A DNA stretch of 64,000 nucleotides from assembly GCA_041500865.1 (NCBI GenBank), contig JBGQMY010000003.1:1-64000 (forward strand), read 5' to 3'. Made by a program: the position numbers and the translations under genes. Positions 12,543 to 20,715 of this stretch are shown here, one piece after another. Source of the DNA: Candidatus Micrarchaeia archaeon. Its GTDB lineage: Archaea > Micrarchaeota > Micrarchaeia > Anstonellales > J096. Within the stretch, counting starts at the first letter, position 1. Each line of letters starts with the position of its first letter. A model generated the notes under the pieces. It did not search any database, had not been told where the DNA came from, and saw only the letters and a program-made list of their open reading frames with translations.

Positions 12543-13388
12543 CTATTCGCACCTGAATGTCATGGTGTTGCAGAACATGCCGTGCGGGCAGTTGTCGTCG
12601 CTTGCGCACCTGCCCTGCTGGGGCACGCATGTGCTGTTAGGCGCGCAGTACTGCCAGTTGTCGCAGTCTGCGTTGCTGTAGCAGTTTCCGTTCATGACCG
12701 TGCACTTGTGCGTCCTGCTTGCGCAGAACTCCAATGCATTGCAGTCGGAATGGGTGTCGCAGTATCCAAGCGCCGCCTTGCACTTGTGGGACGGCAGCTG
12801 GCACAGCTGCCACGTGCTGCATTCCTCGTCCCCGTTGCAGAAGCCGGACTTCGGCGTGCACATGTGCGTCTTCACTGTGCAGGTCTCCCACGCCTCGCAG
12901 TCGGTGTCCAGGTCGCACCTGTCGGCCATCGGTATGCATCTTTGGAGCGTCGTGTTGCAGTACTGGTACGAGTTGCACTCCGTGTCCTTCGTGCACCTGC
13001 CCGCCTTCAGCTTGCAGACGTGGCCCTTGGTGTCGCAGGAATACAGCGGGTTTGTGCAGTCTTCCTCGACGTTGCACCTGCCTTCAGCCGCTATGCACTT
13101 GTTGGCGGTAGTGTTGCACCATTCCCACAGGTTGCAGTCGGCGTCCTTGCCGCACAGGCCCTGCTTCGCTATGCAGGTGTGCGTCTTGCCGTCGCAGGTC
13201 TGCCAGCCCAGGCAATTGGAGGACGAGTCGCACATGCCAGGCCTTGACTCGCACGCCTTGTCCGTTATGTTGCATGACTGCCAGCTCTTGCATTGGTCGT
13301 CGCCCGTGCAGCTGCCCTGTATGCAGCCGAAAGAAAACATGAATGCCGTTGCTATTGCCGCAATCGCCAAAATTCCTATGTGCTTCAT
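12543..13388 (-). CDS. Cys-rich repeat lipoprotein-like surface protein
   Basis: signal peptide ending FSFG-C, ~10 repeats of ~26 aa C..D.DC..W..C....H.C....G. Confidence 0.8.
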   Translation of the reverse strand: MKHIGILAIAAIATAFMFSFGCIQGSCTGDDQCKSWQSCNITDKACESRPGMCDSSSNCLGWQTCDGKTHTCIAKQGLCGKDADCNLWEWCNTTANKCIAAEGRCNVEEDCTNPLYSCDTKGHVCKLKAGRCTKDTECNSYQYCNTTLQRCIPMADRCDLDTDCEAWETCTVKTHMCTPKSGFCNGDEECSTWQLCQLPSHKCKAALGYCDTHSDCNALEFCASRTHKCTVMNGNCYSNADCDNWQYCAPNSTCVPQQGRCASDDNCPHGMFCNTMTFRCE

Positions 13389-13454
13389 CAAAAATACACC
13401 CTTGCTTAGATTTTTACACAAATGTTTTTAATGGTTTGGAATGGAGTTGGTAAT

Positions 13455-17415: not shown

Positions 17416-18294
17416 ATGGAATTGGCAAAAGTCGATCAGATTTTGTTCGGGATAGTTTTTCTGGCAGGGAGCTTCATGTTTGTATTGATCTCCCTTTGTC
17501 TGACTTTATTACCAGGCGGCTATATCCTTAATTCGCTGCCTGAATGGGTTCTATTGGGAGCATTCTTTATTTTTTTTATCGAGGCAGTAGCATGGTGGCT
17601 AAAGGGAACCCTTGCCATGGACGAAGCAAAGCTTGAACAAAAGAGCGCCACCCTCTGGTCGCAGTTGGGCCGCTTTCGCCAATATTTGGATGCGTTTAGG
17701 GTCGTGATCACTTCAATATTACTCCTGATAATTTTTGGCGTTGCTTTTTATTACATATTCAACAGTCTCAAATCAGGAATGGTCTTCAGAATCCAATTCT
17801 TTGTTTTGCTTGCGACATATGTCTTTTATCTTGTCGTAAGGAGCCCGCTATTGTCATTTCTGGAAAAACTGTTTGCGCCAGCAAGCAAGATGTTCCGCGG
17901 CAACCTGCCAAGCTACACGTTGAATGGCAGTGGGCTGACAATAGATCTTAATATAAGGAATCTATGGGGCCCGTCAGAGAAATATCTGGTTAATATAAAC
18001 TTTGATGAGCTTGATGAGATAAGGACATTCACGTTCCAAGAAGCAAGCACATTCCTTAGATATAAGATAGGTCCTAATGCTGAACTACTGGCAAAGCAAG
18101 CAAAGGGCATGTACAGTTACATGAAACATGAGATACCGAGGCCATCAACCTATATAGTACACGCTACTTCAAGCATCGGCAAAATCGTATTGCTAAGGGG
18201 GCCTGAACTTCTTTATTTTGTCGCTTTTGACAAGGACGACGTCAGCGACCTTCTGGACGCTTTTGAAAAATACAAGAAAAAGGCAGGAAAGTAA
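17416..18294 (+). CDS. hypothetical membrane protein (4 TM plus soluble domain)
   Basis: 292-aa ORF, AT-rich codon usage. Confidence 0.7.
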   Translation: MELAKVDQILFGIVFLAGSFMFVLISLCLTLLPGGYILNSLPEWVLLGAFFIFFIEAVAWWLKGTLAMDEAKLEQKSATLWSQLGRFRQYLDAFRVVITSILLLIIFGVAFYYIFNSLKSGMVFRIQFFVLLATYVFYLVVRSPLLSFLEKLFAPASKMFRGNLPSYTLNGSGLTIDLNIRNLWGPSEKYLVNINFDELDEIRTFTFQEASTFLRYKIGPNAELLAKQAKGMYSYMKHEIPRPSTYIVHATSSIGKIVLLRGPELLYFVAFDKDDVSDLLDAFEKYKKKAGK

Positions 18295-18402: not shown

Positions 18403-19488
18403 TCATACGGCTAATTCCTTGGCAAATAGCCTATTGAATCTTTCCACGACTCTTTTCCTGAAATTATAGCTATTTGCAAATCTGGCATAAGCAAGCCAGC
18501 CTTCCAGGCTTTTCACTATTTCTTCCCTGTTCATCTCTCCTTTATCGCATTTCCGTTTGAACATGTCAAGGCGCTCCCAGATTCTTCTGGCATTGCTCTT
18601 CTTGAGAAGCCGGTACCCATGAAAAATCCTGAAGCCAAGAAATGCTATGCCCCGTTCCAATGGAATAATGCTGGACTTTTCAGGATGGAGCCTTATCTTG
18701 AGCCGGTATGCCAGAAACTCGCTTATTTCAGCGTTCCACATTTCAAGCATTTTCCTGTCCCTGTGCAGAATCACGAAATCATCCACATAGCGGATGTAAT
18801 ATCTGGCCCCAAGCCGCTCCTTTGCAAAATGGTCGAATCCGTTCAGGTATAGATTGGCAAAGAATTGCGAGGTCAGGTTTCCAAGGGGCATCCCTTTCCC
18901 ATGAACTTCAGCTTTGTGGTTTGCCAATATCATTCTTACCAATTGCATAATATCCGGATCCTTTATTTTACGGCTAATCATCTCCAATAGGATTTCATGT
19001 TCAACTGTCGCAAAATAATGCAGAATGTCCGCCTTGAGGGCATATCCGCAGCAAACGGATTCTTCATCGCTAGGCTCTTTTTCTGCTTTTGGCTTGCAGA
19101 AAGAGACCGCGCGCATGAACCGCTCCAGTCTCCGTATCGCATTATGCGTTCCCTTGCCTTTCCTGTTGGCAAATGAGTCAAAGATGAAATCCTTTTCAAA
19201 AATGGGCATTATGACGTTGCATAATGCATGGTGCACAACGCGGTCCCTGAAATGGGACGCGCTTATTTTTCTGGTCTTTGGGTCCCTTACGAGGAATACA
19301 GTTGGCGGGCGAGGCGAATAGGCAAATGCCTTCAGCTCGGATTCCAATTGCCTGAGATTATTTTCAAGATTGGATTCGAACTCAATTACATAATCCTTCA
19401 GCGTTTTCCTTTTTCTGGCTTTCTGAAATGCAAGCTTAAGGTTTTCATAGGAGCAAACCTGCGGATAAAGATGCCTGTAGGATTTCAT
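18403..19488 (-). CDS. DGR reverse transcriptase
   Basis: FRDRVVHHAL, KGKGTH, LKADI..YF, GMPLGNLTSQFFANLYL (SQ typical of DGR RTs), YIRYVDDF, FLG; no endonuclease domain. Confidence 0.95.
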   Translation of the reverse strand: MKSYRHLYPQVCSYENLKLAFQKARKRKTLKDYVIEFESNLENNLRQLESELKAFAYSPRPPTVFLVRDPKTRKISASHFRDRVVHHALCNVIMPIFEKDFIFDSFANRKGKGTHNAIRRLERFMRAVSFCKPKAEKEPSDEESVCCGYALKADILHYFATVEHEILLEMISRKIKDPDIMQLVRMILANHKAEVHGKGMPLGNLTSQFFANLYLNGFDHFAKERLGARYYIRYVDDFVILHRDRKMLEMWNAEISEFLAYRLKIRLHPEKSSIIPLERGIAFLGFRIFHGYRLLKKSNARRIWERLDMFKRKCDKGEMNREEIVKSLEGWLAYARFANSYNFRKRVVERFNRLFAKELAV

Positions 19489-19515
19489 GGGTTTCGCCAA
19501 GCGCACAGATAAATG

Positions 19516-19779
19516 CCCCTAGGGTGCAAGCCCAAGTCATTCCGAACGCATTGGACGGCCTGTAGTTCGCGTTGACGTTCTGCCTGTTGTTGCCGTTGTT
19601 GTTGACGTTGCGGACCAGAAGGCCTCAAGAGTAACCCGTCTGCCACAATGGCACTTTCGTGCCAACACCGCCGCTTCACGCTTTCAATCCATGATTTACT
19701 CAATGTCGCGGCTGAATCCCATGTCTGGCTTTAACCAGCACTGCAGACAGGTGTGTGGCCTAGGCTTGCACCCTAGGAA
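19516..19779 (-). ncRNA. predicted DGR template RNA
   Basis: 15-bp perfect inverted repeat 19518-19532/19763-19777, extended by G-U pairs on the minus strand; internal GAAA tetraloop hairpin. Confidence 0.7.
19536..19624 (-). repeat. DGR template repeat (TR)
   Basis: GGCCTTCTGGTCCGC-AAC-GTC-AAC-AAC-AAC-GGC-AAC-AAC...; ungapped match to 20042-20130. Confidence 0.95.
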
Positions 19780-19803
19780 TAGGGAAAAGGATGGAAAGCT
19801 TAT

Positions 19804-20715
19804 TTAAAGCGCTTTCCCTACCGCATCCAGGAATTCCCTGATTGGCGCTACGATCTGGGCGTCGATTATGCCAGGCATCCTGCCAACAGCGCTTACAGCC
19901 CTATTATATGCGGCTTTCAGCTCATCAGCCGAGATGCCGGGCACTTTGATAATCGTCTCTTTTTCAGCCGGTTTTCCTGACTGAACATTAGAGGCAAGAA
20001 GCGCCTGGATTTTTTCGGTGTCCCCTTCGGGGACTTCCAACGCCACCCCGAACGCACCGGACGGCCCGAAGTACGCGTAGACGCCCTGCCTGCCGTAGCC
20101 GAGGTCGTCGACGACGCGGACCAGAAGGCCCACATATGAAGAACCATTCAGCCTCCAAAGATATCTTGCATCCGGGCTTTGCGGCACCTTGTCTCCATGC
20201 GGAACGCCTGTTTCCTTATGCGGCATGTACAAGCCATCAGGACCTGGGAATTCTGGAACCGGTATCAGCCTGTCTTTTGAAATGTCCAAAACCATTGAAT
20301 CTCCGTCTTTCTGGAAATCTTTTGAGGTTAGACCCAGTGCCACAAGCGCAACGTTCTTTTCGCCCTTATAATCCCCTGTTGTCGGCAAAACTATCCTTGA
20401 ACCGTCTCCTGCGGAAAAGACTATCTCCTTTCCCAGTCTAACGCCTGGCTTTTCATAGGCGATTGAGGCGTCAACAGCGAAAGGCGTCATTGGAACCAAG
20501 CTTCTCCATGTCGCTCCAACGTTAAGCGCAACATCCGCTGTGTTATGGGATATGACTAGGCAATTGGTTCCATGCACATTGTTGAATTCCTCAACTAAAG
20601 GATGGGCATCAAAAAGCTTTGTTGTTCCGCTGTTCCTTAGAATCAGTATGTTCTTCTTTTGTCCGTTAGCCTCTAACTTTATCAGTTCCTTTCCAGCAAT
20701 TTGGATTTGTGACAT
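19804..20715 (-). CDS. DGR target protein (303 aa), internal variable region
   Basis: codons ~196-225 (GLLVRVVDDLGYGRQGVYAYFGPSGAFGVA) form the VR. Confidence 0.9.
   Translation of the reverse strand: MSQIQIAGKELIKLEANGQKKNILILRNSGTTKLFDAHPLVEEFNNVHGTNCLVISHNTADVALNVGATWRSLVPMTPFAVDASIAYEKPGVRLGKEIVFSAGDGSRIVLPTTGDYKGEKNVALVALGLTSKDFQKDGDSMVLDISKDRLIPVPEFPGPDGLYMPHKETGVPHGDKVPQSPDARYLWRLNGSSYVGLLVRVVDDLGYGRQGVYAYFGPSGAFGVALEVPEGDTEKIQALLASNVQSGKPAEKETIIKVPGISADELKAAYNRAVSAVGRMPGIIDAQIVAPIREFLDAVGKAL
20020..20034 (-). promoter_or_regulatory. DGR post-VR homing hairpin
   Basis: GTCCCC-GAA-GGGGAC 7 nt 3' of the VR. Confidence 0.75.
20042..20130 (-). repeat. DGR variable repeat (VR)
   Basis: 20 mismatches to TR in 89 nt, all at TR A positions. 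Confidence 0.95.

Follow-up and report, generated by a model that had tools for sequence, protein, structure and literature searches.

A diversity-generating retroelement of a Micrarchaeia archaeon with no avd gene found and a candidate circularly permuted, self-priming RNA

How does a diversity-generating retroelement (DGR) start reverse transcription when no gene for the accessory protein Avd is found in its cassette or elsewhere in the genome? The question is raised by a locus in a 64,000-nt stretch of contig JBGQMY010000003.1 from a Candidatus Micrarchaeia archaeon (assembly GCA_041500865.1; 1.04 Mb, 92% complete). This stretch is called the window, and all coordinates refer to it. On its minus strand lie, in this order, a target gene (19804-20715) that contains the variable repeat (VR, 20042-20131), a 178-nt spacer, the template repeat (TR, 19536-19625) and the gene for a reverse transcriptase (RT, 18403-19506). 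The first-pass annotation had identified the locus as a DGR, and adenine-only TR/VR differences, an intact RT and a target with a predicted C-type lectin (CLec) domain bear this out: it is a real DGR, of the accessory-less DPANN type already catalogued. What matters is its RNA. We consider it likely that the RNA of Rfam family RT-16 encoded in the spacer folds, together with the TR, as a circularly permuted form of the DGR RNA of Bordetella phage BPP-1, and that it primes its own adenine-mutagenic reverse transcription. The architecture of this RNA is well supported as a structure by sequence comparison; priming from one nucleotide, A19756, and independence from Avd are what we infer by analogy.

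The RT-16 RNA and a helix around the template repeat

The spacer holds a full-length match to RT-16 (RF03019; 19626-19777, minus strand; 62.4 bits against a gathering score of 50). This RNA, present as a single copy in the genome, ends at the 5' boundary of the TR and is likely the scaffold of the DGR RNA. It recurs in 56 of the 62 loci that encode relatives of the RT (the related loci; L numbers denote the other DGR or RT loci that were fetched), where it ends at or near the TR whenever a TR was mapped. Six related loci gave no match (L016, L032, L046, L061, L064 and L068); contig ends truncate two of them (L046 and L064), and a third (L068) is an RT fragment. Among the loci fetched later, 13 of the 17 RT loci scanned carried RT-16. 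A TR/VR pair was found upstream of the RT in 44 of the 62 related loci, and the order target, TR, RT is the known DPANN layout.

The RNA can form a long-range helix that encloses the TR. Its 5' arm (19756-19779, minus strand) ends in A19756, the putative priming nucleotide, and its 3' arm (19516-19539, minus strand) starts at U19539, within the TR's version of the initiation of mutagenic homing sequence (IMH*, CGGAATGAC, 19536-19544). In the window, 19759-19779 pairs with 19516-19536 through 15 perfect Watson-Crick pairs, or 21 when G-U pairs are counted; beyond this block come one C-A mismatch, a C-G pair and finally A19756-U19539.

To place the arms in the related loci, we used anchors chosen by rules blind to pairing, a YACA motif and the AAU at the end of the TR. 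A first rule, applied to 56 loci, hit AAT codons inside the TR and gave 75.4% paired cells, compared with 63.7% when arms were swapped between loci; the rule was then revised. With the revised rule, 85.9% of the cells were paired over 10 pairs, against 69.3 ± 1.4% in the swaps (maximum 74.3%) and 20-48% when the arms were slid. Of the 55 loci in the input, 54 are in this set, as no anchor could be placed in L023; the input did not include L011, L069 or the second copy of L042. The terminal pair was A-U in 54 of 54 loci, and the second was C-G in 28 and U-A in 23. An unanchored search for the longest perfect stem was rejected, since most loci could not be separated from shuffles and only the anchored test achieved this. 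An outer helix also surpassed the swaps in energy (-11.8 versus -7.2 kcal/mol). In the loci fetched later, the helix was paired in 73.8% of the cells, against 60.6 ± 2.2% in swaps; 24 of these 52 loci could be anchored, the others having no core motif (14), no RT start (5) or no anchor (4) or being duplicates (5).

Two further helices lie inside the long-range one. According to the Rfam structure, a strand at 19743-19752 closes on a segment just upstream of the TR (19634-19643, 8 nt before the TR; both minus strand), and a stem-loop with internal loops and an AGUA/GAA motif spans 19670-19712 (minus strand). In an alignment of 51 rows, which excludes L029, L036 and L067, whose anchor did not land on the TR end, the long-range helix was paired at 85.9%, the helix just upstream of the TR at 98.4% and the inner AGUA/GAA stem at 90.3%. 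Nine of the 10 pairs of the long-range helix displayed changes on both sides, and none of 500 shuffles reached its score. As judged from these alignments, all three helices covary. The AGUA/GAA motif was found upstream of the TR in 44 of the 54 loci and downstream of it in none, and in 45 of the 54 only 20-60 nt separate the RT start from the anchor at the 3' end of the TR. The Rfam model of RT-16 stops before the TR and draws, where the long-range helix competes, a local hairpin called P1. This hairpin formed in 46 of 54 RNAs cut off before the TR, but in only 3 of the 54 full RNAs.

Priming and Avd

The elements of the window's RNA can be matched to those of BPP-1. The BPP-1 RNA consists of the 3' end of avd, the TR and, 3' of the TR, the Sp region, and its structure is described in a cryo-EM preprint of Handa et al. 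(10.1101/2023.10.23.563531). Sp47-56 forms a duplex with TR117-129, and the priming base is A56; the duplex of Sp59-70 with avd369-379 is the cPRT Stop. After the Stop strand come a short stem-loop, a single strand and the stem-loop that binds bRT, and Avd is bound by Sp3-33. RT-16 presents the same order: a primer strand is followed, after a short linker, by the Stop strand, and then by a stem-loop, a single-stranded stretch and the RT-binding stem-loop, after which the RNA runs into the strand just upstream of the TR. The end of the duplex is in the same register, reading A-U, C-G, U-C, G-C in BPP-1 and A-U, C-G, C-A, G-C in the window. A19756 would thus be the analogue of Sp A56, 19743-19752 and 19634-19643 likely those of the Stop strand and of avd369-379, and 19670-19712 likely that of the bRT-binding stem-loop. 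As structures, a BPP-1-like template:primer duplex at the 3' end of the TR and a Stop duplex upstream of the TR are both present, from which their functions are presumed.

The difference lies in where the RNA is open. BPP-1 has Sp, with its Avd-binding stem-loop, 3' of the TR, whereas in the window the matching elements stand 5' of the TR and the closed ends of the RNA take the position of the Avd-binding stem-loop. Joining the ends of the BPP-1 RNA and opening it at that stem-loop would yield the layout of the window, which argues for a circular permutation. An AGUA/GAA hairpin is common to the Rfam models Phage_DGR (RF03022), RT-14 and RT-16; it is 3' of the TR in BPP-1, BalMu-1, ANMV-1, vir525 and cr55_1, and 5' of it in the window.

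Two phage DGRs among the fetched loci carry other Rfam RNAs between TR and RT, RT-14 in BalMu-1 (L133:2373-2516) and, below the gathering score, RT-17 in cr55_1 (L132:2419-2510). Both look like equivalents of Sp.

These likenesses suggest how the element might work. The RT-16 strand ending in GGCCA would pair with the strand that begins UGAC at the 3' end of the TR, forming the template:primer duplex, and A19756 would supply the priming hydroxyl, as expected from the BPP-1 register. The RT, gripped by the AGUA/GAA stem-loop, would copy the TR and stop at the helix just upstream of it. The cDNA would then replace the VR upstream of the IMH and re-draw the binding face of the predicted CLec protein. 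The position that the Avd-binding stem-loop has in BPP-1 would be occupied by the free ends of the RNA, in keeping with an RT that works without Avd.

Retrons also possess an RNA, msr-msd, that is closed by inverted repeats (a1/a2). The likeness is that the template is enclosed between a 5' and a 3' arm, by which a priming base on the 5' side would be brought to the template's 3' end; the window differs from retrons in that its RT is of the DGR type, its template has a genomic copy in the VR and its putative priming base is an A.

Several observations weigh against this model. The two adenines of IMH* that lie beside the helix are apparently not transferred to the VR, so that copying may start at a more internal site. 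Folding gives the terminal pairs low probabilities in the window (0.30 and 0.39); for the terminal A-U, at 0.30 in the window, the probability exceeds 0.5 in 31 of the 54 loci. The loci are kin, so that the controls overstate the significance of the covariation, and the anchor rule was revised after a first result. Rfam keeps RT-16 and Phage_DGR as separate families, and the model of each found no match in the locus of the other; homology therefore rests on the order of the elements and one short motif. Profile searches can miss a remote Avd, and four-helix proteins of PF05635 are encoded, unlinked, in 5 of 19 genomes with RT-16. Finally, one locus (L136:1471-3220) combines two targets, a bAvd gene, an RT-15 RNA that ends at the TR start and a TR directly against the RT, and a predicted helix encloses this TR. 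RT-15 looks like another upstream DGR RNA, and L136 indicates that a DGR with an upstream RNA need not have lost Avd. A strict coupling of permuted RNA to Avd loss, which we had considered, is weakened by this locus.

We considered the possibility that the RNA is permuted and self-priming, yet the RT needs a partner encoded elsewhere, either a remote Avd-like protein or a host protein, the missing avd being a limit of detection. This would agree with the inactivity of bRT without Avd (10.1101/2023.10.23.563531), with the coexistence of avd and an upstream RNA in L136 and with the incomplete genome. Yet profiles for bAvd (PF22296) and PF05635 found no match in the 92%-complete genome. The first-pass annotation had called the element complete, which needs qualifying, since no avd was found in the cassette or in the genome. 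Among 151 genomes of the same phylum, RT-16 was found in 19, the RT in 19 and both in 16, and bAvd in none. PF05635 did occur, unlinked, in 12 of the 151, 5 of them with RT-16, which lends the idea of a partner some support; it never stood beside RT-16, and 14 of the 19 RT-16 genomes had no match. Of 50 of the genomes that hold the 62 related loci, one contained bAvd above the cut-off, in a separate avd-TR-RT cassette without RT-16 match. A second DPANN phylum, sampled with 201 genomes, had matches to the RT query in 57 and bAvd above the cut-off in 3; the former number suggests that the layout is common.

A similar picture has been described for DGRs of architecture A1, TR-RT without accessory gene, for which avd genes in trans were also sought and none found in Wu et al. 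2018 (PMC5758913). There, 75 of 372 DGRs had no accessory gene, and an Avd-independent way of working was proposed, with the mechanism left open and, in the available text, no RNA model. The window has the target, TR and RT of A1 and zero accessory gene. Of the marks of architecture B, an avd inside the cassette finds neither room nor match, and a structured Sp RNA 3' of the TR is not seen with Phage_DGR at E values up to 5. The VR appears, moreover, to have been re-diversified in a related strain (see below), which is also at odds with a need for a partner. Taking these points together, we regard a partner encoded elsewhere as unlikely, though it keeps some weight.

Another possibility is that RT-16 binds the RT and the helix only closes or stabilises the RNA, or acts as a stop, while priming starts from target DNA nicked at the IMH or its hairpin, or from a site further inside the TR. 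The IMH (20042-20050, minus strand, CGGGGTGGC), at the 3' end of the VR, has GG at the place of the AA of IMH*, the pattern of the TGGGGT/TGGAAT pair in PMC4372165. In 34 TR/VR pairs from related loci, the two positions of this AA read G in 33 of 34 VRs each, compared with 318 of 862 cases for adenines of the TR body, which indicates fixed IMH differences and would be unexpected if these were the first bases to be copied and integrated. The weakness of the terminal pairs points the same way. On the other hand, the helix ends in an invariant A-U exactly at the TR boundary, in the register of the BPP-1 template:primer duplex, and the place where a stop is needed is already occupied by a separate helix. 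Priming from elsewhere thus appears rather improbable. That the primer strand might also read the IMH DNA was rejected as a general rule, the VR pairing worse than the TR at pairs 3-5 (16, 15 and 8 versus 25, 29 and 21 of 34); the idea fits BPP-1 and 8 of the 9 loci with a TR mismatch at pair 3.

That the inverted repeat is just a local or DNA-level feature (the P1 hairpin or a mobility scar), with a small Avd-like open reading frame (ORF) hidden in the spacer, as the legend of Fig. 3 in PMC4372165 suggests by labelling small ORFs between target and RT of the DUSEL4 DGRs Avd-like, is very improbable and largely refuted by covariation: P1 does form in most RNAs cut off before the TR but hardly persists once the 3' flank is present, the two arms, though far apart, show compensatory changes, the 72-aa ORF over the TR, alone in the spacer in reaching 50 aa, has no Pfam match, and no family of small accessory ORFs recurs around 54 cassettes.

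The DUSEL4 Nanoarchaeota DGRs (Paul et al. 2015, PMC4372165) otherwise resemble the window in their order of target, spacer, TR and RT, in their GGGGT/GGAAT IMH pair, in a GRA-loop hairpin inside the target gene and in a CLec target. Their spacer is treated as containing Avd-like ORFs, whereas that of the window carries RT-16 RNA with a helix to the 3' flank of the TR.

Going back to the permuted, self-priming RNA, we would tentatively extend it to a class, though we hold this wider proposal to be somewhat doubtful. RT-16 DGRs could be a widespread archaeal two-component class made of an RT and a circularly permuted RNA, about 265 nt long, that clamps itself and has its opening exactly at the Avd-binding domain. 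The closing helix would take over the positioning role of the Avd pentamer, and refolding from P1 to the long-range helix would arm the primer only after the TR has been transcribed. If the model of a permuted, self-priming RNA is right, the orphan Rfam family RT-16 gains a function, a named priming base and three helices can be mutated, and a compact system of RT plus RNA becomes available for Avd-independent adenine mutagenesis; DGRs have been described as the main RT type in the archaeal group concerned.

The RT-1 to RT-19 motifs come from Weinberg et al. 2017 (PMC5737381), whose main text assigns only RT-10 to a DGR and speculates on others. The structural survey of DGR RNAs in 10.1101/2023.10.23.563531 covered an Avd-bearing set and five archaeal genomes, with only 40 nt upstream of the TR. 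Neither RT-16 as a DGR RNA nor a permuted DGR RNA was found in the literature searched, which did not extend to Paul et al. 2017 or to the supplements of Weinberg et al. and Handa et al., any of which may already link RT-16 to DGRs; the available text of PMC8867640, PMC8632793 and 10.64898/2026.09.22.753630 mentions neither.

Adenine mutagenesis and activity of the element

TR positions 19536-19624 and VR positions 20042-20130 align without gaps over 89 nt at an offset of 506, both on the minus strand, and the match continues for one base (19625/20131), an A>G change. All 20 mismatches fall at adenines of the TR, which holds 27 of them (A>G 13, A>T 6, A>C 1). With A as a wildcard, the VR fits the TR at 62 of 62 non-A bases and the runner-up site in the 1.04-Mb genome at 39 of 62, so that the match is not due to chance. 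The perfect identity outside adenines that had been noted is thereby borne out, and the search for remote VRs that had been suggested returned none in the genome. The figure of 20 of 27 TR adenines that had been given is right as a count of differences, but three of them (19541, 19540 and 19537) fall in the IMH/IMH* zone, so that the count for mutagenesis is 17 of 24. One of the two positions of the IMH* AA is synonymous in the window's target.

In the frame of the target, the TR has ten AAY codons, giving 15^10 (5.8e11) variants, as had been calculated. Adding the other codons with A brings the variant space to 2.5e14, or 8.3e13 without the IMH* codon; a stop codon cannot be reached by adenine mutagenesis of the TR. 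Within the target ORF, 7 nt past the IMH, the DNA can form a hairpin, GTCCCC-GAA-GGGGAC (20020-20034, minus strand); GRA-loop hairpins inside target genes have been described for nanoarchaeal DGRs (PMC4372165). RT-16, the helix around the TR, the IMH/IMH* pair and this hairpin were absent from the first-pass annotation, whose remark that DGRs are known in DPANN was correct, the layout being that of known DPANN DGRs.

Activity was assessed from VR diversity in contigs assembled from sequencing runs, a procedure that drops rare variants. Run X1 may be the source of the window's DNA. In runs X2 and X3, the VR contigs were identical to the window's, with 0 differences. Run X4 contains a related strain, whose RT and TR contigs share about 97-98% identity with the window; one VR contig of this run (151 nt, depth 2.8) displays 18 substitutions and a 3-nt insertion. 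Of the 14 substitutions that are listed, 2 are in the flank and 12 in the VR, and all 12 are at TR-adenine sites. The element has therefore likely been active since the two close strains split. The recent activity that had been suggested is thus borne out only in part, by X4; in X2 and X3 the VR was unchanged.

The cassette was not found in five of five genomes of the same family, and the RT gene, with a G+C content of 45%, is below the genome's 52%, which together fit gain or loss as a unit. A scan for sigma-70 promoters and terminators, whose scope does not include archaeal promoters, gave counts at the level of shuffles.

Other loci display variations of the TR. In L012, L022, L027, L030, L045 and L066, insertions of 25-50 nt near the middle or the 3' end of the TR break the TR/VR match; these are possibly decayed or regulated copies. 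In L042 (3534-4882), two RT-16/TR units, each paired with a separate VR, stand in tandem upstream of a single RT match, and one genome (G028) has two RT-16 copies 1.2 kb apart.

Target protein, reverse transcriptase and neighbouring genes

The target (303 aa, 19804-20715, minus strand) is predicted to have a CLec domain, with the VR at aa 196-225, followed by a mostly helical tail of 78 aa. It has no Pfam family, no useful sequence match in the PDB and no evident signal peptide; its 45 homologs, besides itself, are Micrarchaeota where named. An AlphaFold2 model built from 46 sequences had a predicted local distance difference test score of 91.7. Foldseek found no match for it, and a wide structural search (VIA) ranked first the nanoarchaeal DGR variable protein 5ioo (Z 8.0, root-mean-square deviation 3.7, 162 aligned), second TaqVP 5vf4 (Z 7.7) and next lectin-fold chains. 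The Z scores are middling, but the list of matches is consistent. The target, which belongs to a Micrarchaeota family, is only 10% identical to 5ioo, the variable protein AvpA of the DUSEL4 DGRs.

Past the end of the window, the same contig encodes an orphan protein of 264 aa that is a paralog of the target, with 28% identity over 185 aa (L071:4092-4886, minus strand). Its gene retains an IMH with the sequence CGGGGTGGC and a CCCC-GAA-GGGG hairpin, and its VR-like region fits the window's TR at only 37 of 62 non-A bases; it is probably the target of a second DGR, lost or unassembled.

The RT (367 aa, 18403-19506, minus strand) may start at the ATG at 19488, the position from which the matches to most homologs run. 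GxxxSQ and YxDD are motifs of DGR-type RTs, and GNLTSQ and YVDD are present here, as the first-pass annotation had recorded for an intact RT. The protein matches Pfam RVT_1 (E 3e-17) and is 32% identical to BPP-1 bRT over 96% of the length of bRT; its best phage matches include BPP-1 brt and the ANMV-1 RT, and most of its full-length relatives, which share 58-68% identity with it, carry the label Micrarchaeota. A group II intron RT was rejected (TIGR04416, 149 bits against a cut-off of 300; no intron RNA match), as was a retron (St85 retron RT model, 43.5 bits against 235; no retron RNA match). An antisense ORF of 94 aa within the RT gene has no Pfam match.

Eight other DPANN DGR RTs (L140-L144, L151, L153 and L157; e.g. 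L142:1537-3189) have a C-terminal extension of about 200 aa whose first part is an HTH_40 domain (in L142, Pfam E 4e-20), and six of these eight loci have an RT-16 match. Elsewhere in the window's genome, a 2.4-kb contig (C36; L072:1-2413) encodes a group II intron-type RT that is 27% identical to the DGR RT and lies outside the cassette.

Convergent with the RT gene, 17416-18294 (plus strand), with a G+C content of 43%, below that of the genome, encodes a protein of 292 aa that contains hydrophobic stretches and matches nothing in Pfam or NCBIfam. Further away, 12543-13421 (minus strand) encodes a cysteine-rich repeat protein with a hydrophobic N-terminus and a match to DUF5885.

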